Shown here: positions 7,974 through 64,000 of the stretch, in pieces
Numbering within the stretch: the first letter of the stretch is position 1
How the letters are laid out: every line of letters starts with the position of its first letter
Source of the DNA: Botryllus schlosseri
Taxonomy: Eukaryota
Assembly: GCA_051294905.1 (NCBI GenBank)
Contig: CM119371.1
Coordinates: 2,420,001-2,484,000, forward strand
Direction: 5' to 3'
Length of the DNA: 64,000 nt
Made by a program: the position numbers and the translations under genes
Notes under the pieces: model-generated
The model's database searches: none
Told to the model about the DNA's origin: nothing
The model's input: the letters and a program-made list of their open reading frames with translations, nothing else

Positions 7974-8034
7974 CTACACAGAAAACCACAAGTGGTGAAT
8001 GTAGTCAGCATCGCAATTTTCTACAAGTGTTGAT

Positions 8035-8375
8035 GGGTGCCTTTATTTTGTACATGCAAGCTAATGAAAAGCTAATGCAGCTAATTAAGCTAAGGAAAAG
8101 CTAATTAAGCTAATGAAAGGCTAATTAAGCTAATGAAAAGCTAAGTAAGCTAATGAAAAGCTAATGAAAAGCTAATTAAGCTAATGAAAAAGTAAGCTAA
8201 TGAAAAGTAAGCTAATGAAAAGCTAATGAAGCTAATTAAGCTAATGAAAAGCTAAGTAAGCTAATGAAAAGCTAATGAAAAGCTAATGAAAAAGTAAGCT
8301 AATGAAAAGTAAGCTAACGAAAAGCTAATGAAACCAGCTAATGTAAAAATGAAGCAAGGAAGTAAGTCCAGATTA
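8035..8375 (+). repeat. Left TIR: unique ~24-bp tip plus tandem array of AAGCTAAT(G/T)A(n) / AAGTAAGCTAATG units
   Basis: Directly visible array; reverse complement of 14022-14547. Confidence 0.95.
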
Positions 8376-8540
8376 GTATTTTGCTCATATGATTCTGGAT
8401 GTATCAAATCCGAAATTTTAAATCCGAGTTTAGAATCTGGATATTCGATTCTCAATAGGGATTTTTGAATTATGATTGCAATAGTGCCAATTCAGACCTA
8501 ACTGCACCCTGCAAACTGGAAGATTTGACGGCACCGACAG

Positions 8541-8801
8541 GTTTGTTTTGGGGTGTTCATGGTGTGTCTCGACTACTATGGTCATGGTCATGGTCATTTA
8601 CACCAAGCAATTTTCTACATTTTTATTCCGTAGCGGCCGACTTGTACAACGGCCCACATTCTTGGCTTTTATAAGACACCGCTTACACGGATGAGATGGC
8701 ACCTAGGTCCTAGGAGGAATTCTGGAGTCGACCTCGGTCGGACTCGAACCCACAACCCATTGGTGTTGCAGCTGTGGATTACACCACTACGTTATCTCGC
8801 C
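8541..8801 (-). mobile_element. tRNA-derived SINE (family A) inside the MULE
   Basis: Minus-strand head GGCGAGATAACGTAGTGG (A box) ... GGTTCGAGTCC (B box). Body tccgtgtaagcggtgtc...gggccg..tacaagtcgg is shared with copies at 18715, 62990 and 9600. Confidence 0.8.
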
Positions 8802-9599
8802 ACTACATACAGCGGTGATCTCTGACGAAGTTTTTCTGCCTGCTCGGTGCTAAAGTGCCAGCACGCCTAACATGATAATGTGGCCGGTTATGTTTGCAAA
8901 CTGAATTTGATAGCGTGAACGAACATGAACATTGAACATCAACGACGTTTCAAAGGGAGTTCATTTCTTGATGGTAATTAGTTAGGAAGGCAAGGAGGAT
9001 TTGAAAACAGCATTGTCTCACAAGCTCCAGCATGCCTGCTATCAATCAACGCATCATACAAAACTGGATTAACCCGTTTCGGCACGCGATATGTCTGGTA
9101 AACCGAATTCGCGTGGATATTGGTTGCGGGCTTGACAGTAATTTTTATTTTACAAATAAACTTCACATCATGATCGACAGATTATAATTTAGATTATTGA
9201 TCGTTTTCTTTAGAACTGAATCATTCTGCGCATAATTTCAAAATTGGGAAGACTTCTTTTTCGTTACCTTTGCGAAACCTAAATGACGTACTAGTGAGAC
9301 ATCGGCACCATTGCCATCCTGATAATGAGCAATGAGTAAACTAACGTTGAAAACGTCCGGATATGTACTACTTTGTAATTGCATATATTTGCTGCGCTGA
9401 ATTGGGATATTCACGTATCATTTTTGCTGTATAATATTTCACAGGGAGGGGCAAGGTATAGCCTATCGACTAGCGAGTCGTAACGCATTCACGCTCGTGA
9501 TCTTTTATTATAATATCCGACAAGAATAATGCTTAGCGCGGAATATACTTGACTAGTTCCGCTTTAATTCGCTTGAATATATTCACAGCTCCGCAGCTG

Positions 9600-9835
9600 T
9601 AAAACGAATTGGTTGGGGGTTCGAATCAGGCCCAAGTCGGTTCCAGTATTCCTACCCAAGTGTTTCTGGTTTAGGGTGTGGGCTTGTACTGCTCGTACGA
9701 TCCGCGTAGACGGTGTCTTGCAAAGGCCCCGACCCATAATAGTAGGTGGATCAGGAACCGTAATAACGAATACCAGCCTGGTGTAAAATGACCAATGACC
9801 ATCCTATAGTAGTAGAAACACCATTAATACCAACC
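9600..9835 (+). mobile_element. Diverged family A-like SINE inside the MULE, upstream of the ORF
   Basis: B-box-like GGTTCGAATCA at ~9618; tccgcgtagacggtgtcttgcaaaggccc and gcctggtgtaaaatgacca...tagtagtagaaacacca resemble the family A body and tail. Confidence 0.6.
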
Positions 9836-10158
9836 TACTACGTTAGTGTGACCACTGATAAGTGTGACTAACTGTCTCTAACATTAATTTTGTAATTCAC
9901 ATATCGATACATTTGTACGTGTACTTGAGGTAGAGCTGCAACGTCACCACGTCACCACAGAGTTAACATGTGTTTATCAAAGAACCTGATTGTGACGTCC
10001 CCTCGCTTCAGAAATTGTGCAAAATTTGCAACTTTCCCCGCGCGGCAGCGCTCGTAGCAATCCCATTGGGGTCATCATTTGAGGTAGCGAAGGACAGTGG
10101 AAAGGATAGCAATTCTCATTGTTTTTTCCGCAACAAGGTTGCGTTTTCGTCTTGGATT

Positions 10159-13134
10159 ATGTCTCATCCTTGTACTGTTTGCGGACTTGATTGTTTAAAG
10201 TCCGACGAGTACGTCGAATGCTACGAATGCAACAGATACTCTCACTGTTCTTGTGCGAAGATCAGTAGCTTCAGTGAGCGGAAAATCCAGATTTTCATAT
10301 GTCGTTGTTGCATATTCTTCGAAGGTGAATTCAATTATGAGTGGGCATTGCAACATATTAGAGCAAATCCGGAACATTGTACAGCTATAAAACGGATACT
10401 TCGTTTGTATAAAGTACTCGAGCCTGATCGGAGCATGCCAAATGAGGCAGCAGTAGGGGATGAGGTTTCACTTATGATTTTGAAGCAGTTTCATTATATC
10501 ATCACCACGGATCACACGGCCTTGCGAGTTGATGGCGATGGGAATTGTTTTTACCGCGCAATGTCGCTTGCCTTATACGGCACTGCGAAACACCACTTGC
10601 GCTTGAGGCTTCTGACCGCGCTCGAAATTATTGAGCATCCGAAATATTATGACGAAGACGCAGAGGGATTTGTTGACCTTATAGCTGACGTTAGAATTGT
10701 GTCATCGCCTTATGCCAGTCTGCTACAAAAAGCAAGCATCCCGGGGCATTGGTCCGAGATGATGCATATTTACGCATTGAGTGCCGCCCTTGGCTCCGCG
10801 ATTCGCTCATACTATCCGTCAACATTGGCAAATGAATACCTGACAGAACCGTTCACGAGCAAATGTTGCGGCCGGGGTGTGTCGAAATTTGCCATACCAG
10901 TTGCGACTCTGATGTGGACACAAACTACCGTGCCCACGACAAGCAATCCGTTTCGACCGAATCACTTCGTGCCAATCATCAAAATCACCGATCTAATTTC
11001 AAGTGATCCAAATAGTTTATGCGAATCAAAACTGAAATCGGAGGATCAGAAAAGCGACATTGATAAGCCGAATGTACGCGAAAAAGACGACATTGACAAG
11101 CCGAATATACGCGAACAAGACGACTTCAAAACGTTTCATAAGAGCGAACTTGGCGATGTGAATGATAATAAACAACCGCATTCGCTCCTAGAAAGCAGTA
11201 TCCCAAGTGAAGATTCGCCTATTGACCAAATGAATGGGGAACAGATGAATTCAGAAATAGGAGAAGTTGCTGACGGAGACAAAACCAAATCAGTTCTACC
11301 TAACCTGAACAATGAGCTGAACAATGAAACGAAGCTGCCCTTTAACGAGTTTTTGAAAATTGAGGATGTGGTGAAAAAAATTATGGATTGTAAAAACGCC
11401 CTTTCGAAGATTCCTCCAGGACGGAAAGACAATTGTTACATTATCGTTGATTTTAAAACAAACATACTTCGAAAGGCTGCTAAAATTCATCGCATATTTT
11501 ATGATGACATGGGAGCTTGGACGAAAACCAAGCAAACATATTCATATTACTTGAAGACCGAGGACCGACTCAGGTATGTATACAAGCCGCGGTGCCACAG
11601 GGGTGCTATTTGTACCCTAAAAATGAAGGAGTACTTGCCGTTATCACCGCAGCCTTCTCCAGGTGACGTACTCATGGTTGGGCGATACTACGCTAAATCA
11701 AAGAACAACCCTGGTTACGAAAAACGTATAAGCTGGATTGAAAGCGGACCATCGGATCCATGTAATGTGTGTATCGTGGAGTACAAGGGTATATCTGGGG
11801 ACTGCAGTCCACACGGAAACAGCTCTGTGAACTTTCAAAATTACATCCGCACTCCGCCCAGCACTATTGAGAAGATAAAGGAAAAGGTTACATACGGGAC
11901 AGGAAAGCGAGTTTACGTTGATCTTCAAAATGATTCCGAAAGTATTTCGCAAATGCCTCGGAATATAAGTCAGATCCACCACACTAAGCACCGGGAAAAA
12001 GTAAGCAAAGAAGGGCACAGTAGCCTGTCGCGAGACTGTTATGCAGACGAACTTTTGGATGTCATAAACATGATGCACACGGAAAAATTTGTGAGAAGAG
12101 TCATCCATTCTCCAGCAAAAGCATCCAGCATAATTGTATACACCGATGATCAAATAACAGATCTTAAAAAGATGTGTTGTACTGGAAAAACTGTACCTGG
12201 AATTGACAAGACATACAACCTAGGCAATGTGTACGCTACTGTAGCAGTTTTCAAAAACGTGAAGATGATTAGCACCAGAACGCAGGAAAATCCGATTTTC
12301 ATTGGTCCCATATATCTCCACCATAGGTCAGATAGAGGGACATTTAACGACTTCTTCAGTCATCTTAGCTCCGTTATAGGAGGTACTTTCGATCACCTTG
12401 TCGTGGGGACAGACGACGAAATTGCGCTACACTCAGCAATAGAAAATTCGTTCAAAAACTGCAAGCACGTTCTCTGTGTCAATCATTTAAAGACAAATTT
12501 GGTCGACAAACTTCAGCACGGCATCGGTGCAAGCAAGCATTTGAGAAAAAGTCTGGTGAATCAAGTCTTCAATCTGTTGGATAGCAAGGACGAAATTGAA
12601 TTTAATCGAAGAGAAGAAGACCTACTCACTAGGTGCCATAGCATATGCCCAATGCTGGTCACATACTTACAAAACAGATTGCTACCGTTGTTGCGAAAAA
12701 AGGTCTGGCAAATGCGTAGCTTTATCGGCGCCGAGCACAAATGGTTCACCAATAACAACTGCGAGAGCATGAACCATGTTCTCAAGCGATTGACAGATTG
12801 GAAAAAGAAAAAGTTACCAGATCTAATTAATCTACTCAAATCAGCGATCACTTCACAATACTTGGATGTACGAAAGAGTATCACAGGCCGTGGTACTTTT
12901 ACCCTTGCTGAGAATTGTAAAAAGTATTTGGTATCTCCTTGGGATTGGGACGACATGCCAAAAGACGAGCAAGACCGTTCATTTCAGCAGTTAATGAATT
13001 TTCCCGCCCCGACAGCCTGTAAGCTGCCAAAATCATTATCACTCTCCACTGATGGGCAATTGATGGCACATAATCCTTCGAAACGAAGTGGCAGCAAGCC
13101 AGGAGGAACCAAATGCAAAAGAAAAGTTCGTTGA
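10159..13134 (+). CDS. PHD finger - OTU (vertnin-like) cysteine protease - MULE DDE transposase fusion, ~991 aa, intronless
   Basis: First ATG at 10159 within the 9970-13134 ORF. PHD C4HC3: CTVC..CYEC..HCSC..CRCC. OTU: VDGDGNCFYRAMS (Cys codon 10546), WSEMMHIYALS, PNHFVPI (His codon 10963). MULE: IDKTYNLG (D 12205), VGTDDEIAL (D 12412), LCVNH (CxxH), TNNNCESMNHVLK (E 12763). Basic NLS-like tail KRKVR. Confidence 0.93.
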   Translation: MSHPCTVCGLDCLKSDEYVECYECNRYSHCSCAKISSFSERKIQIFICRCCIFFEGEFNYEWALQHIRANPEHCTAIKRILRLYKVLEPDRSMPNEAAVGDEVSLMILKQFHYIITTDHTALRVDGDGNCFYRAMSLALYGTAKHHLRLRLLTALEIIEHPKYYDEDAEGFVDLIADVRIVSSPYASLLQKASIPGHWSEMMHIYALSAALGSAIRSYYPSTLANEYLTEPFTSKCCGRGVSKFAIPVATLMWTQTTVPTTSNPFRPNHFVPIIKITDLISSDPNSLCESKLKSEDQKSDIDKPNVREKDDIDKPNIREQDDFKTFHKSELGDVNDNKQPHSLLESSIPSEDSPIDQMNGEQMNSEIGEVADGDKTKSVLPNLNNELNNETKLPFNEFLKIEDVVKKIMDCKNALSKIPPGRKDNCYIIVDFKTNILRKAAKIHRIFYDDMGAWTKTKQTYSYYLKTEDRLRYVYKPRCHRGAICTLKMKEYLPLSPQPSPGDVLMVGRYYAKSKNNPGYEKRISWIESGPSDPCNVCIVEYKGISGDCSPHGNSSVNFQNYIRTPPSTIEKIKEKVTYGTGKRVYVDLQNDSESISQMPRNISQIHHTKHREKVSKEGHSSLSRDCYADELLDVINMMHTEKFVRRVIHSPAKASSIIVYTDDQITDLKKMCCTGKTVPGIDKTYNLGNVYATVAVFKNVKMISTRTQENPIFIGPIYLHHRSDRGTFNDFFSHLSSVIGGTFDHLVVGTDDEIALHSAIENSFKNCKHVLCVNHLKTNLVDKLQHGIGASKHLRKSLVNQVFNLLDSKDEIEFNRREEDLLTRCHSICPMLVTYLQNRLLPLLRKKVWQMRSFIGAEHKWFTNNNCESMNHVLKRLTDWKKKKLPDLINLLKSAITSQYLDVRKSITGRGTFTLAENCKKYLVSPWDWDDMPKDEQDRSFQQLMNFPAPTACKLPKSLSLSTDGQLMAHNPSKRSGSKPGGTKCKRKVR

Positions 13135-14021
13135 GCTGTAACTAAAGAAAATCAAGTTCATAAATGCACTGTACATTTGCAGCAATTGTGCCTATACTGC
13201 CAGCATGAACAGAACATATACAACATGTACAACATTTTCTGTCTGCAAGTACTGAAATCCCTGTCCATATTGGCGTATTTCCTTTCGTTGTCGTAATTTT
13301 CTGCAAGTGAATGCTCAGTTTCGTTTTATATGTTGCTATATTTTTCAATACAGTGTTACGCTTGCTCGTGTTTCAAAACTGAAAATTATCACCCAATGAT
13401 ATGAACAGCAAGGATGAGATGGCGTATTTCGGTTTCTCCCGAATGTGAGGTTGCCTCAACGAACCGGTGATCCGCTAAATGAGTTGACAGATTTTTTCAC
13501 GACGGATTCCTTTTCTGTCGTTATCGTACCTTTTTAACCAGACTGGATATCGGCACTGATGTTACGCGCCTGCGGCTATGGGTTGTCGGGACAGCTATCG
13601 TTTGGTTGAGTAGAGGTTTAACCAGAGCAAACAGTTCGCAGGAGAGAAAAAGTTCTATAACTGGTCTAGTTAAGCAATGTAGGGTCAATATATTTTGTAA
13701 AGAGAAAGCTACGTTTTCATTGGCACAATGTTCAACCTAAAATCGGCGATGTGTAGTGGTTCCAAATATAATAATTTTCATAGTCATTGGGAACGATAAA
13801 GTAGCAACATTTTCATAGTCGTAAATGAGTAGGCCTATATCACGAGTATTTTCAATAATATCGCGAGATAGTACTCGCAGCATAGTTTATTTATAAACGA
13901 GGCTGGCATTGATGTCGGTTAATAATTATTATTTCCAAGATACCAATTCAGCGTCAATCAACAAACGCACACATTTAGCAATTGCAATCAGCGACGTTTT
14001 TCGATGCGTGGTGTTCAATTA

Positions 14022-14547
14022 GCTTCCTTGTTACATTAGCTTCATTAGTTTTTCATTACCTTGTTTCATTAGGTTTTCATTAGCTTTTGATTAGCTTACT
14101 TCTCATTACCTTAATTGCTTTTAATTAGCTTCATTAGCTTTTCATTAGCTTACTTTTCATTAGCTTACTTTTTCATTAGCTTAATTAGCTTTTCATTAGC
14201 TTTTCATTAGCTTACTTAGCTTTTCAGTAGCTTAATTAGCTTCATTAGCTTTTCATTAGCTTACTTTTCATTAGCTTACTTTTTCATTAGCTTAATTAGC
14301 TTTTCATTAGCTTTTCATTAGCTTACTTAGCTTTTCATTAGCTTCATTAGCTTTTCATTAGCTTACTTTTCATTAGCTTACTTTTTCATTAGCTTAATTA
14401 ACTTTTCATTAGCTTACTTAGCTTTTCATTAGCTTACTTAGCTTTTCATTAGCTTAATTAGCCTTTCATTAGCTTAATTAGCTTTTCCTTGGCTTCATTA
14501 GCTGCATTAGCTTTTCATTAGCTTGCATGTACAAAATAAAGGCACCC
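14022..14547 (-). repeat. Right TIR: tandem (CATTAGCTT) array plus unique tip
   Basis: Reverse complement of the left TIR; first ~51 bp identical and ~128 bp with two mismatches; more repeat units than the left arm. Confidence 0.95.
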
Positions 14548-16045
14548 GTGTTGATTGGTTAACCGAAGGTGGCTACTTTCGAAGTACCTTCACTACGAAA
14601 GCAAAATGATTCATGACACCAACACACAATACACAGGTAGAATCTTCATAATATTTAAATCACCTTATCACAGAAGGCTGTAATTCACTGCAATAAGTAA
14701 TGCTACTTACCCCAAAACTACTTTCAACTTTTTAATATTTTAATTGCAAAAGTAAGTATTTTGGTCTGAAAGTATAAAAGTGGAAATAATCTAAAGCAGA
14801 CGAAGTCTACTGTTTCCAGTGTTTAAAATAGAGTCAGATGCCAACAGAGTAGTAATTTTCACAACAGAAAAAAACCTGGAGTTGGAACAGCGAGCATCAA
14901 CTTTCAAAGTTAGTAGATAATAGCTGTAAAAATGAGCCAAAAAGGTTGAGAACCATCAGACAATGTCCAGTCATACGGGAACTAAAAGGTTTGGATGTTA
15001 TGATGATTCATTATGATACAAATGTATCGGAACGTTACTTTGATAAAATGTTTTATTCAAACGTATATTATACCGTACCATGCCATAGACCACATTGCAG
15101 GTCTGCCAAATATAATACAATTTTAAATCTCAATTTCAGAAATGAAACAAGTTGTACGCCAGTTCATAAGTTACTGAATTGAATTGGAAAATTGGAACGA
15201 ATTTTCTGCATCGTGTCATGACAGAGTTCATGACCTACTTTGGACTTGGCATGCATCACAATTCACAATACTGCAATTGCTGTGCTAAACTGTTTCATGG
15301 TAGCCTACCCTACAACTGGTTCAACGATATTTTCATGTGAAACCCAAAGCTGTGACCAAGTCACGAGGTTTCGAGTCACAAGACCAATAAACTGTTAGGC
15401 TATAACTTCGACTCACAATATACTCATTTTTCTCACTCTAAATATGCTTATTCAAACAGATAACATACAGTTTCGTGGCCTATGTTCCAGTTATCATTAT
15501 GCTAATGACATTAGAGACTTAAATATGTCATATAGAATGTGTAGAGTCATAGGAATCGGACGAGTCATTCGCGAAGAATCTAGTACAAGTCGCGTCAATA
15601 CACATATTGACTGGAGTCGAAAAGAGTCATTTTGCGTTTTCAAGACAATAACTTGAGTCAAGTTGAGTTAAACGACAAATTGTGACTGTAGTCATTACAA
15701 CCCTGCCAAAACCTAACAAGACTTGTTGAAAATTGTTATTTTTTTACTGTAATATTTGGAGCCATCTGAGAGTATGATCAAGTCCAACCCACATCAAGGT
15801 TGCAATACCATGAAAATAAATCAAAGATTTAAGCGATTTTAACGGGACCTAATGCCTTACGGTAACTTAAAAATATCAAAATGACACTAGCAACTTATTA
15901 TATGGAACTTTCAGATATCCGTTTTTAAGTTGCACACAACTGCCTTGAATACATGTTGGTATGATTTCTATTTTTGATTACTGGTCTAGAGTACGTCAGC
16001 ACCACAACACTGACAAGATTGAACTGAATATTGGCTCTCAAGTAT

Positions 16046-18714: not shown

Positions 18715-18920
18715 GGGGTCGACTTCAGACTTCCTACCAAGTGTCGGAGATTTATCTAGGCTCCCCCTTGTCATATCATCCGTGTAAGCGGTGTCCTATA
18801 AAAGCCCAGACGCGGGCCGTGCTACAAGTCGGCAGCTAAAGGATAGAAATGAAGAAAATTGGCCTGGTTTTAATTACCATGGTAGTCAACAAACACCATG
18901 AACACCACAAACAACAACAT
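18715..18920 (+). mobile_element. 5'-truncated family A SINE
   Basis: ggtcgacttcaga...tccgtgtaagcggtgtcctataaaagcc...acaccatgaacaccacaaacaac matches the reverse complement of 8541-8735. Confidence 0.8.
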
Positions 18921-59203: not shown

Positions 59204-61197
59204 ATTGTAGTTGTAATTTGATATTGGTAGCATAGAGTAATTAAAATCATAATGAAATTAAAACATGAAATAGAGTAATTGTAATTGAAATTGAATTGAA
59301 TTAATGTAATTGATCCAACTCTGGAGGTGGCCCTATATTTAAATTAATGCAAAGTGTACTAAATTGCGCGTAGCGCCAAGAAAAAATTTCATTAGCATAA
59401 ATCTGCTATTATTGTTTATGTTTATTTGGAAAATATTTTCAGCGTACTTCAAACCTTCAAGATTATGGACTTTGAGGCATATATTAGAAATTCCTTCCAG
59501 ACACAACGTGAACAGTGAAATTCCGAACATGCCCCGGGAGATTTACACGTATGGTAATCCTAATAACTTGAGAATTTCGGACAATCATCCTTGCGCGCAA
59601 GAGGAATGTTATTGTGACATAGGCGCCGAGTTACGGGGTGGCGGCCACCCCATACAAAATGCTTGAACACCCTCCGTCTGCGACACGACATCAGCTCAAC
59701 GACGCAAACCAGATCATCAGCAATGTCAATAAGCGAGTCCGTGATATCGCGCAAATGCCAACTATTTACGATTAACCAATACGCACTCGCGAATAGCGAC
59801 GACGAACTCGTGCTAAAATCGCCCCAATAGATTGTAATCCGTGGTTAGTACTGATAATCAGACAATCGAAGCGACCTCGTTTATGATCGATTTCGACGAG
59901 TCTGCGGCCTGCGCTGAGGAACACCATCTTCTCTCTCGACCAGACGAGCGAATTCACGTTCTCCTTCCAATTAAATTGTATTTGCGTGCATATTCGTTTA
60001 CAAAATAATTATCGACTTAATTTGGTGATAGTCGCTTTAATTGGAGCGCGAAATAGGACCGTGTGTTTGTGTATGCCTGCGAATTCAAAGTCATTTCTAC
60101 CCAATATGCGCATATTCAAAGGCAAAGGACGGGCCAAGCCTCCTTAATATTAGCGCAATAATTCATCGTGAATAGCTTTAAATCTATAACCGATGTTACT
60201 CGAATTAAATGGTCACACTGATCCCTAAAATCTAGATATTGATCGACTTCCTAATTCTCAAAGTATGCGACGGTAACGTAACGTTGCGCTATACGCCTAC
60301 ATTTTAGTGGCGGTAGTAGAAAGGTACTTTTAGCAATCAAGGACGTGGACATCGCTATGGTACTGTTTGTAAGTTGAATTTGTACACGTGCATGTCACTT
60401 ACATGGCAGTTCATTTGTCGCAGCACATCCAGACGAAAGTAAAGTGGTTAATTTTGATTGACAAATGATTTACGACATTACAGAAATTTCAGACAGCGCC
60501 AAGATACTGTATTTCATCAGATTTGTTTGAATAACACTGCGCACTTCCGCGTTTTCGGTGTACGCAGATCGTGCAGCACGCGTGAGGATAGTTCTACTGG
60601 CAACCACCCGTAGTTCAAGTCTATAGTTCCAAGCTTTCGCCAAACCGGTATGATTACCTCTAGGGTTGGAAAATCTGTTTACTGATATAGTTTTATCAAC
60701 TTTACTTCTCAATTCTCAAATTGGCCTGTAACAACGTTTTGCTACAAGCCCATATTTCAACGCCAGTGCAGGCACGTTATCTAACAATCTCAATATGGAT
60801 GGCTAGTTCCTAATTCGGATTCGTCAATGTGGACATCACTTCCAAATGAGTTCATTTCTTTGTTGTGATTAGTACGCTAATGAGGATTTGAAAATTGCAT
60901 TATTACAGGGGCACCGCCATGTTTGCGACGAATAAACGTGTATTGTGCAAAACCTGATCTAGCCTTCAAAGCAATATGGCGCTGAAAGCGAACTACGGTT
61001 AGATATTGATTGCCTGCATGACCGCAATTTTGATTTGTCAAATATACAAACTTCACATCGAACCCGATTTAGATTATTGATCGTTTACTATAGACTAGAA
61101 GTATTTTGCGTATAACTTCAAAACTTGTCGAATCTCTCGCAGCACCCTCGCGAGACGAGAATGACACAAAAGTGTGCCTCAGTACACCGGTTGTAAA

Positions 61198-61728: not shown

Positions 61729-62487
61729 GTTGTAAACCACTGCCCTAGTCGTACGTTTACTCTTTCAGTGCAAACAACTAGGTCGTCTAAATTCACTGTT
61801 GCAGTTGTTATGCGACGTGGTCCTGTATATTGGATCACAAATTCGCTGTGTGTGCGACGTTACTAGTTCCTGCACATTCAGAAAACAATATGGCTATCAG
61901 GTTGTGGTGTAATTTTCCCCTAATAGCAGGGCTGTAATGACAAGAGTCATTACTCGACTCGAGTCACGATCAAGCCAATGTGACGTCTACTAGCGTCATA
62001 TATTGAGCACAATTTGCCAATTTTTGCCGCCCAGCAATTAAATTAGGTCAATCGTCATATGATTGACTCTGGATTACGGTAGTTTTTTTTTGAGACAGCA
62101 GCGGATATCTATAGTAATCCAATCCAGTATTTAGAGAATCTACGCTTCGAGGTACGGTATTACCTTCAGCCATCGCTTTCGGTTCGTGATATTGATTAAA
62201 ATACTCCTGATACAGGCTATTCATATATCATGTATGTTCAATGAGCAGGTTGCTACTATATCGTTCCCATCGAATATGATTTTGAAAATTGCTATCTTTC
62301 CCGCAATAGGCCTAAGCGGCGTGAAATTATGACACCGAATGGATTGCTACGAACAGTGCATCGCCGCGAAAAGATGTGAATATTGCATCATATCGGAAGA
62401 GGATAGACTTCACAATGACATGAATTCCAGATTAAAACATAATATAGTTTTCGTACGAAAGGAATCATTTGAAAAAGTACGACTCAC

Positions 62488-62801
62488 TTGTATTCGATTT
62501 TCCAGACACCTTGTAATGATGCCCAACAGCTCGTCGTCGATACTGCAGCTGCTTAAATTCAGAGAACGAAGGCTTTGATTCCTTGCTGCAAGCGATCCAA
62601 CGATATGATCTTCATCGCGATTCAATGAGATGTTAGATGCGTTGATGACGGAAAGATCTTTCATAAGATTGTCGTCACCCGATTCGTAGATTGCTGTATA
62701 GAGTTCCATGCGAACGAATCTGTCTTCGTATCCAGTCTTATCATGAAGTTGTGAACGGATCGATTGATATAAAGCTTGTTGCTTCCTTTTTTGATCCGGG
62801 A
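62488..62801 (-). CDS. NLR gene exon (HD2 end and first LRRs), phase 1-0
   Basis: ttgacag acceptor in phase with the 63448 donor; ...MELYTAIYESGD...NQSLRSLNLSSCSIDDELLGII...NRIQ|gtgagt. Confidence 0.8.
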
Positions 62802-62989
62802 CTGTCAAGCAATACACAATGTCATTGTCGTTGTACCGGTATTCGTAATGTTTGCCTAATCGTTTACGTAACAATTGAATAATTCACGCGATTGTGATGA
62901 GACAGGGTTCAAATGGAGTCATTGAACTTTAATGACTAGTTCACAATAACAAGATCATTTCATGCGCATTAATATCGCATGTTCGACTA

Positions 62990-63185
62990 AGATCGGCTCC
63001 AGAATTCATACCTAAGTGTTAAAGGTTTATTTAGGCTCACCCTCCGCAAGCTGTATCTTTCAAAAAGCTTAGAAGTGGGCCGTGCTACAAGTCGACGGAT
63101 GCGAAACCAAAAATGCAAAAAATCGGCATGGTGCAAATGACACTTTTAGTCGACAGACACCAGAAATACCCGAACAAAAAAACAA
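62990..63185 (+). mobile_element. Diverged, 5'-truncated family A SINE in an NLR intron
   Basis: ctccagaattc...gtgggccgtgctacaagtcg...tggtgcaaatgac...agtcgacagacacca matches family A. Confidence 0.7.
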
Positions 63186-63447
63186 TGTCACATAGTGATC
63201 ATCGATGGGCCCTGGTAGCGTTCACGTTCAATAATCTGCGAACTTATGCAGATATTAGATGTATAGGTTTTATTTAGCCGACTGAATGTAAAGAGTTATT
63301 TACCAGCCGTGTATGAATTTAAGATCTTTCGACTATTTCACCTCTTCGATTGTGACAATACCATCAAAGTCGTGATAAACCATAAGCGACCCATAATAAT
63401 CAATCTGTGCTGCGGCAGAATAGCCGCGGAAAACCATGATTACTCAC

Positions 63448-64000
63448 CGCTGTGAAGATAGTTATTGGATTTTATGTAAACGATGCCTGTAACGAATCTT
63501 CGAACCACGGACCATCGTTTCTCATGTAGATGTTGGTCAGCAAAGCGAGAGAACATTTCGAGCTCCATTTCCGAGATAAAACTAGCCGCCAGAAATTCCT
63601 GCATGCTTTGATGACAGAAGAAGAATGTGAAGTCGCCTTCCATCAAGTGACGGCTGAGGATGTTGTTGCCAGGCACTTTCGTCATCAAATCCTGCACTTC
63701 GTCAGCGGAAACTTTAAACCGATCCAAATCTGCTTTGTAGAATACGACTCGCCCCTCTTTCATGCCTTCAAACGCCATTGCCTTCAATTTGTGGATAATC
63801 GAGAGGATTTGCTTTCTGTTTCGCATATTTTCCACACTCCGTAAGACTAACAGGATCCTGCTGTATAATTCTGTCACGGTAGACGGAGGAGGTCTATCTG
63901 GATCAATTCCCATCACCACAGCAATCAAAATCAGGAAAACCGGGACCGATACAAGTTGCAACAATCGCGGTGACATGATTTTAATCTTCTCCCAGAGATG
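63448..64000 (-). CDS. NACHT-domain (NLR) exon, 5' end beyond the window: HD1, winged-helix, HD2
   Basis: Frame open to base 64000. LVSVPVFL (HD1 proline motif), TVTELY, LKAMAFEGM, FFFCHQSMQEFLAA (winged-helix His motif), WSVVRRFVTG; ends G|gtgagt. Confidence 0.88.

Follow-up and report, generated by a model that had tools for sequence, protein, structure and literature searches.

An intact Mutator-type transposon of Botryllus schlosseri whose predicted transposase carries an N-terminal PHD finger and OTU protease domain

The element and the signs of its mobility

We analysed a stretch of 64,000 nucleotides of the Botryllus schlosseri genome (assembly GCA_051294905.1, contig CM119371.1, positions 2,420,001 to 2,484,000 of the forward strand), hereafter called the window, in which all coordinates are counted from the first nucleotide. 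It holds a mobile element of 6,513 bp with one gene, at 8035-14547, recognised by its inverted termini and a flanking 8-bp duplication. The gene encodes in one chain, and in this order, a PHD finger, an OTU fold, an acidic linker, a beta-rich region and a Mutator/IS256-type DDE core. A preliminary description of the locus had presented this protein as a PHD finger and an OTU deubiquitinase fused to an intact MULE transposase, within a young element. The features of the element are as follows.

8027..8034, no strand: left 8-bp target site duplication GTGTTGAT, read directly, identical to 14548-14555
8035..8347, plus strand: left inverted terminus, opening with a unique sequence (GGGTGCC...) and continuing with about 28 copies of the 11-nt unit AAGCTAATGAA; marked by inverted-repeat pairs
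8348..10158, plus strand: 5' non-coding part of the element, including a very high-copy stretch at 8502-8969
10159..13134, plus strand: transposase open reading frame, 991 aa, stop included, from ATG to stop; both protein termini match those of full-length relatives
10171..10311, plus strand: PHD finger, residues 5-51, with ligands C5, C8, C21, C24, H29, C32, C48 and C51
10456..11004, plus strand: OTU cysteine protease domain, residues 100-282, with D127, C130 and H269; called from Pfam, model and fold matches
11005..11334, plus strand: acidic low-complexity linker, residues 283-392, holding a 33-nt tandem duplication at 11050-11124
11335..11883, plus strand: beta-rich conserved region, residues 393-575, presumed DNA-binding domain, with motifs LPxxxFL, DDxGxW, PQP, EYxG and PHGN and invariant columns
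12076..12873, plus strand: Mutator/IS256-type DDE core, residues 640-905, with D683, D752, C773-x2-H776 and E869
12874..13131, plus strand: C-terminal tail, residues 906-991, whose basic end STDG...KPGG.KCKRKVR aligns with the family C-terminus STDG...GKKPGQRKR
13135..14033, plus strand: 3' non-coding part of the element, no open reading frame longer than 85 aa
14034..14547, minus strand: right inverted terminus, in which about 37-45 inverted copies of the 11-nt unit AAGCTAATGAA lead up to the terminal sequence
14548..14555, no strand: right 8-bp target site duplication GTGTTGAT, read directly, identical to 8027-8034

Both ends of the element open with the unique terminus GGGTGCCTTTATTTTGTACATGC, and the outermost inverted-repeat pair (8035-8164 versus 14418-14547) is 98% complementary over the terminal 130 nt. 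The inverted termini are about 300-500 bp long and are built of 11-nt minisatellite arrays, located at 8058-8347 (about 28 copies) and, inverted, at 14034-14524 (about 37-45 copies). The limits 8035 and 14547 were deduced from the fact that GTGTTGAT flanks both inverted ends and is not extendable to 9 bp; the duplication is perfect at 8 bp, as read on the single insertion examined. Long terminal inverted repeats together with a target duplication within the range of about 8-11 bp are the features by which Mutator or MULE elements are recognised, and the element has both. It belongs to the Mutator (MULE) superfamily as an autonomous DNA transposon that moves by cut-and-paste and has Rehavkus- or foldback-type ends, and it inserted recently via an 8-bp staggered cut. 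The intact element with a perfect target duplication of the preliminary description was thus recovered, with its inverted termini at 8035 and 14547 and identical copies of GTGTTGAT on either side.

Other copies were sought in further sequencing runs of the same organism, of which X5 and X7 were guessed to be RNA and treated as DNA-like. Three runs yielded contigs that match the element at about 99% identity, one comparison showing 12 differences in 1,307 nt, in agreement with the young age that had been claimed for it. The match of one X5 contig to the window breaks off exactly at 8034, beyond which the contig has a different flank; this departure at 8034/8035 reveals a second insertion site and confirms the element boundary. 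In the DNA run X1, the joints 8233>14528 and 9469>13576 correspond to internal-deletion derivatives, which are typical of cut-and-paste elements. The contig depth summed over the open reading frame is about 630-1,600, versus about 430-540 in the flanks, which suggests a few copies of the reading frame, the depth not being a copy number. Among the 14 listed differences between copies of the reading frame, 8 are synonymous and 6 non-synonymous, whereas about 3.8 non-synonymous per synonymous change would be expected (binomial P=0.003); this excess is only a rough sign of selection on active lineages, because 22 further differences across the stretch are not listed. In the 3% that was read of one single-cell RNA run, a few reads in sense orientation cover the 3' part of the reading frame. 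No empty-site allele was found among the listed read joints. Taken together, the element is real and probably active.

Could the gene rather be a domesticated host gene than part of a mobile element? Annotation lists its relatives as ordinary genes under the name 'uncharacterized protein LOC...', as it would a domesticated gene, but the inverted termini are intact and the target duplication is perfect, a further insertion site, deletion derivatives and a depth above that of the flanks were detected, and three separate loci of Styela encode the same protein. We regard domestication as barely credible.

The stretch 8502-8969 within the 5' non-coding part behaves differently from the rest of the element. 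In run X1 its depth reaches 147,000-208,000 (about 430-540 in the flanks), and in DNA contigs both this stretch and the termini are hundreds of times deeper than the flanks. It contains, as reverse complement, the tRNA box-B-like sequence GGTTCGAGTCC (minus strand, near 8715-8800). Because of this depth and of GGTTCGAGTCC, it looks like a nested or shared repeat resembling a short interspersed nuclear element. It also attracts most of the single-cell RNA reads, and many contigs break at 8659, 8700 and 8715. ARAGORN and Rfam scans of the element, 8502-8969 included, found no tRNA or Rfam gene. Elsewhere in the window, short stretches at 18769-18911, 60840-61123 and 62184-62416 are 68-77% identical to the non-coding parts of the element and are probably older relatives of it or shared repeats.

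The encoded protein and its domains

The reading frame is open from 9967 onwards, a run of 1,055 codons whose chance probability is about 1e-27 given the stop-codon frequency of the window, and all other frames in the 64 kb are at most 186 aa long. The uninterrupted reading frame of 991 codons described earlier at 10159-13134 on the plus strand therefore stands. Transcripts splicing the domains apart, which would have spoken against a single chain, were not seen, since no splice joint inside the reading frame is listed in any run. The domains were examined with Pfam, family profiles and structure models, and their conservation was followed in two alignments: A2, comprising 36 relatives picked for N-terminal matches, and A4, comprising 30 long relatives, also picked. 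All catalytic residues fall in alignment columns that are invariant or nearly so across the family, and the three domain calls of the preliminary description (PHD, OTU and MULE), together with its low-complexity linker, are upheld by motifs, family profiles, models and conserved columns.

The PHD finger (residues 5-51) displays the C4HC3 spacing C5-x2-C8-x12-C21-x2-C24-x4-H29-x2-C32-x15-C48-x2-C51, with all eight zinc ligands present. Pfam PHD (PF00628) does not match the Botryllus protein at E<=1, although it matches 11 of the 36 members of A2, at best with E=2.6e-8. A profile built from the fingers of 12 relatives, leaving the Botryllus protein out, matches its residues 3-53 with E=4e-7. Compared alone with PHF13, the Botryllus finger gives E=0.022. 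Against the fingers of the PDB, the family profile matches Pygopus 2 (9e-10), and also MLL1 PHD3, CFP1, DIDO1, BPTF, PHF2, TAF3 and PHF13; the E-values for Pygopus, MLL1 PHD3, CFP1, DIDO1, BPTF, PHF2 and TAF3 range from 1e-9 to 1e-4. We take these fingers to be readers of H3K4me2/3. The conservation of the zinc ligands among 13 three-domain proteins used below is circular, because that set was picked with the PHD pattern.

The OTU domain retains the motifs DGDGNC (125-130) and PNHFVP (267-272). Pfam OTU (PF02338) scores marginally on the full protein (23.6 bits for a cut-off of 23.3) and 25.6 bits on residues 1-290, and it matches 33 of the 36 members of A2 at E<=0.01. The model of residues 1-290, computed from the 36-sequence alignment, has a mean predicted local distance difference test score (pLDDT) of 91.6 and a predicted template modelling score (pTM) of 0.89. 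A Foldseek search of the PDB with this model returned 76 matches at E<=0.001; all those among the matches listed are of OTU type and comprise OTUD1, OTUD3, OTUD7B, VCPIP1, otubains, OTUD5, A20, TRABID and nairovirus OTUs, with OTUD1 (3.2e-6, target template modelling score 0.72) and OTUD3 (target score 0.75) among the best. In A4 (n=30), every sequence has C130, G128 and H269, and 28 of 30 have D127. The D-G-N-C and N-H-F motifs initially pointed out are thus found with D127, C130 and H269 in place, within a domain that passes the Pfam cut-off and is modelled with an OTU fold.

Searches with the family OTU profile matched the OTU of a rotifer Helitron-like protein with E=4.5e-29 and that of a Macro-domain protein with E=7.9e-24, versus about 1e-4 for cellular OTUD5-like proteins. 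Because the profile fits the Helitron and Macro OTUs far better than the OTUD5-like ones, it points to a transposon-borne OTU clade. In the rotifer protein (P0188, 1586 aa, UniRef name 'Vertnin') the OTU of the same kind lies at the N-terminus, and in P0189 (520 aa) it is fused to a Macro domain. These matches suggest that the OTU may be a mobile module common to several element types.

Downstream of the OTU, residues 286-410, which span the disordered linker, are rich in D, K, E, S and N. The tandem duplication in the linker (11050-11124; 33-nt unit, 2.3 copies) encodes the repeated peptide DIDKPN(V/I)RE. The beta-rich region that follows (residues 393-575) contains strands predicted with pLDDT > 85, and a Pfam scan of this region alone detected no family at E<=0.1; our guess is that it may be WRKY/GCM1-like.

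The core carries the motifs GIDKTYN (D683), GTDDE (D752), CVNH (773-776) and NNNCESMNH (E869). In A4, D683, D752, C773 and H776 are invariant and E869 is found in 29 of 30. The Botryllus protein itself scores below the Pfam cut-offs (MULE, PF10551, 21.2 versus 27.6; Transposase_mut, PF00872, 15.4 versus 21); both models exceed their cut-offs in relatives (P0002 35.0, P0003 28.9, P0008 29.8), and Pfam MULE matches 16 of the 36 A2 members at E<=0.01. The model of residues 400-991 has a pLDDT of 90.0. In the PDB it matches ISCth4 transposase chains best, with E-values of 1.8e-6 to 1.7e-4; Hermes and the P element come next. We take ISCth4 to belong to the IS256 family, the bacterial kin of Mutator. 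Though Pfam stays below cut-off, the complete MULE D-D-CxxH-E core announced in the preliminary description is present residue by residue, with an IS256/Mutator-like fold as best match.

Distribution and conservation of the family

With phmmer, 1.84 billion cluster representatives were searched exhaustively, which retrieved 4,024 relatives at E<=0.001 and 378 at E<=1e-30. To count the domain layouts, profiles of each domain built from the 13 three-domain members were run over 176 of the relatives. The layout PHD-OTU-DNA-binding-core was found in 30 proteins, OTU-DNA-binding-core in 36 and DNA-binding-core with no OTU in 62; the remaining proteins are fragments. Named members with PHD, OTU and transposase come from Lingula anatina, Branchiostoma floridae, Styela clava (three loci) and Pinctada imbricata, all annotated as "uncharacterized"; Ciona intestinalis (OTU-bearing) and Branchiostoma provide further named relatives. 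Sequences with this layout thus come from four named phyla or subphyla; their identity is 25-45%, and their catalytic Cys and His do not vary. Judging from these sequences, it is the conserved layout of a large family that is widespread in marine invertebrates and present in brachiopods, bivalves, amphioxus and tunicates. One full OTU-Mutator transposase of the animal-type family (P0004) has an NCBI record under a bacterial metagenome-assembled genome (Sedimenticola sp.), where it is probably host DNA binned with the symbiont.

Mean pairwise identities were then calculated by region over the 13 three-domain proteins. They amount to 0.31 for the PHD, the OTU and the DNA-binding region alike, 0.35 for the core, 0.27 for the tail and 0.17 for the linker. 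These values support the view that the PHD and the OTU are under constraint, being conserved as much as the DNA-binding region.

The preliminary description had regarded homologues lacking the N-terminal domains as contrary evidence, and at face value such homologues are found: no OTU match was detected in 62 of the 128 relatives with DNA-binding and core regions. The core may therefore work without the OTU. We examined how these proteins are distributed on a FastTree phylogeny of the 89 proteins with near-complete DNA-binding and core regions, 39 of the 128 being dropped as incomplete. The OTU-less label requires 26 changes on this tree, versus 27.6 for shuffled labels, and the OTU-bearing proteins are spread across the whole tree. 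Such a scattering is what incomplete gene calls on short contigs or repeated independent losses would give, and it does not fit a separate lineage. It also bears on the possibility that the PHD-OTU part is a passenger, either a captured host fragment or decaying baggage, playing no role for the element. Mutator elements do capture pieces of host genes (Pack-MULEs), and the 62 relatives without OTU match would be expected of such a passenger; however, these do not form a clade, the layout recurs at 25-45% identity in four named phyla or subphyla with invariant catalytic Cys and His, and the PHD and OTU are conserved to the same degree as the transposase regions. We consequently hold a passenger PHD-OTU to be highly improbable.

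The junction between the linker and the DNA-binding region was inspected in the light of another hypothesis, namely that the OTU is a processing protease cutting its own chain and freeing the PHD-OTU part from the DNA-binding and DDE part, in the manner of viral OTU-like proteases acting on polyproteins. Self-processing was proposed by Babu et al. 2006 for those Mutator transposases of Medicago that contain an OTU-superfamily protease (PMC1702500). A Gly-Gly pair lies 10-23 residues before the LPxxxFL motif in 19 of 93 relatives, typically in the form A/P-G-G-x-x-L-P, whereas the 158 control windows set further upstream in the linker contain none, a bias consistent with a cleavage site; four of the 19 belong to one cluster. 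Yet the pair is missing in the other 74 relatives, no Gly-Gly column is conserved among the 13 three-domain proteins, and the Botryllus protein has neither Gly-Gly nor any Gly there (it reads NETKLPFNEFL). The motif may also simply begin the DNA-binding fold. We consider self-processing unlikely.

A proposed mechanism and its relation to known systems

Our favoured reading, which we consider probable without placing great confidence in it, is that of an autonomous Mutator transposon whose protein combines terminus binding by the beta-rich region, excision by the DDE core and an accessory PHD-OTU deubiquitinase with a tether to the H3 tail. The beta-rich domain would bind the repeated 11-nt units present in both termini, and the DDE core would excise the element and reinsert it with an 8-bp stagger. 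The PHD-OTU pair would fold as one unit and act as an accessory module outside the DNA chemistry. Its OTU may act on the transposase itself, or on chromatin or repair proteins at the donor or target site, by stripping off ubiquitin or a ubiquitin-like modifier, and could in this way shield the transposase or guide repair. Across the family as a whole, the PHD would tether the protein to histone H3 tails, most likely K4-methylated, and so bias insertion towards active chromatin as for maize Mu, whose insertions co-localise with open-chromatin marks (PMC2774946). Such a "reader-eraser" function is plausible, and it has already been speculated for other transposons. Transposases have repeatedly been found with ubiquitin or SUMO proteases or PHD fingers as add-ons, and a role of Ulp1 or OTU in transposition or repair was proposed (PMC2836005). 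Helitron deubiquitinases of another fold have been characterised biochemically, with a proposed protection from the proteasome (PMC9741609).

Several points weigh against this reading. Pfam searches with the Botryllus protein alone are marginal (OTU 23.6 versus 23.3, MULE 21.2 versus 27.6, none for PHD). A2, A4 and the 13-protein set were all chosen for carrying the N-terminal part, and 62 of the 128 relatives show no OTU match. In the DNA-binding region, M451 of the Botryllus protein replaces a Cys found in 25 of 30 relatives (A4). RNA support consists of a handful of reads from 3% of one run, not assignable to this copy. According to PMC9741609, no OTU domain from a transposon has ever been assayed. 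Finally, the PHD departs from its relatives at the positions presumed to form the aromatic cage for methyl-lysine, which we take to be the residue before the first Cys and the Trp two residues before the His. At the first, the Botryllus protein has H3, against Y or F in 11 of the 15 PHD-bearing rows; at the second it has Y27, against W in 13 of 15.

Because both presumed cage positions are substituted, methyl-lysine reading is doubtful in this copy. This leads to a related explanation, in which the OTU is active but the PHD, here and in near kin, is no methyl-lysine reader: it would be a zinc scaffold on the OTU, or bind unmodified H3 or a non-histone partner, and target choice would not be set by a histone mark. 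Besides the H3 and Y27 substitutions, the lack of any Pfam PHD score points in this direction, as does the pTM of 0.89 for residues 1-290, which suggests a fixed PHD-OTU arrangement in the model. On the other hand, all eight zinc ligands are retained, the fingers nearest to the family profile are those taken above to bind H3K4me, and a Tyr is able to contribute to an aromatic cage. On balance we find this explanation rather unlikely and keep the H3-tethered deubiquitinase as the working reading for the family.

Among described elements, those of the Rehavkus type are among the closest. Members of this Mutator/MULE group, which is known mainly from Repbase, have terminal inverted repeats with subterminal tandem repeats or minisatellites and a PHD in a single transposase open reading frame, its position in the protein not being stated (PMC12581902, PMC6446971); they are summarised as having a 9-bp duplication and arthropod or annelid hosts (PMC6446971, PMC12581902). 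The Botryllus element resembles them, by published description and not by sequence, in its minisatellite inverted termini and its PHD within a single reading frame. It differs in its duplication of 8 bp (one insertion examined), in the hosts of its named relatives (brachiopod, bivalve, amphioxus and tunicate) and in its OTU domain, which the available parts of the Rehavkus descriptions do not mention (PMC6446971, PMC12581902).

In other Mutator elements, as here, the DDE core shares one chain with a ubiquitin/SUMO-type cysteine protease, a PHD or both. MULEs of Medicago have a C-terminal OTU-superfamily protease, those of Ciona and C. elegans a C-terminal PHD (PMC1702500), and Mutator elements with Ulp1 are described in hydra, lancelet and plants (PMC2836005). 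In these published cases the add-on stands at the C-terminus, alone or as Ulp1 paired with PHD, whereas the Botryllus protein has its PHD and OTU together at the N-terminus, ahead of the DNA-binding region. The same kinds of accessory domains accompany unrelated enzymes: in Ginger1, an integrase-like DDE of retroviral type is followed by a C-terminal OTU, or by Ulp1 with or without PHD (PMC2836005), and Helentrons, with rolling-circle Rep/helicase enzymes, carry OTU and/or VTD deubiquitinase domains (PMC9741609). The cellular OTUD1, OTUD3, OTUD5 and OTUD7B and the nairovirus OTU proteases have in common with the Botryllus domain its fold and the Asp-Cys-His motifs, at 12-20% identity among the matches listed. 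Unlike in these proteins, a PHD finger and two helices are packed ahead of the OTU, within a transposase. In the literature searched, outside of which lie Repbase Reports, subscription journals and supplements, we found no description of an N-terminal PHD-OTU on a Mutator transposase and none of a transposon origin of vertnin. With so large a family, and with transposons already known to carry each of these add-ons, the protein is far less novel than the preliminary description implied.

A relationship of the OTU with vertnin (VRTN) had been raised in the preliminary description. Vertnin is reported to have an OTU-like papain fold that is catalytically inactive and without catalytic residues (PMC10318531), so that the OTU-like fold is common to both proteins and the catalytic triad lost in vertnin is kept here. 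In the ESM Atlas, a vertnin cluster appears at rank 18 with a score of 0.80, only after excluding the OTU-labelled clusters, which score 0.92. This cluster combines Vertnin_mid with HTH_Tnp_1 and has no MULE. HTH_Tnp_1 has no Pfam match at E<=1 in the Botryllus protein. Vertnin_mid (PF28388) is absent from all Pfam results, its presence in the Pfam copy used not having been checked. As for the family OTU profile, its match named 'Vertnin' bears only the automatic UniRef name of the rotifer Helitron-OTU protein. On these comparisons the vertnin link is an unproven lead. In a bolder version of the scheme, which we judge improbable, PHD-OTU would be a rigid chromatin-tethered deubiquitinase module, carried on Mutator transposases since before the lophotrochozoan/chordate split. 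Its OTU would belong to a transposon clade shared with Helitrons and Macro-OTU proteins and would edit ubiquitin on histones or repair factors at the transposition site, and vertnin-like inactive OTUs would possibly be domesticated offshoots.

At least three unrelated kinds of transposons (Mutator, Ginger and Helitron) repeatedly carry ubiquitin/SUMO proteases. As a sequence feature, the Botryllus protein is one member of a very large family already present in public protein sets under uninformative names. As an experimental object, the element is a compact test case, with one intron-less open reading frame, all catalytic residues, intact ends and signs of recent movement, and relatives with a more canonical PHD are at hand for comparison. 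Mutation of C130 or removal of the PHD would directly test transposase protection, repair steering or target choice.

Away from the element, exons of an NLR-type gene were detected at 62413-64000 on the minus strand, and the gene continues past the end of the window. They encode a NOD2 winged-helix domain (Pfam, 28.6 bits for a cut-off of 23.1), with a leucine-rich-repeat match below cut-off in the next open reading frame.

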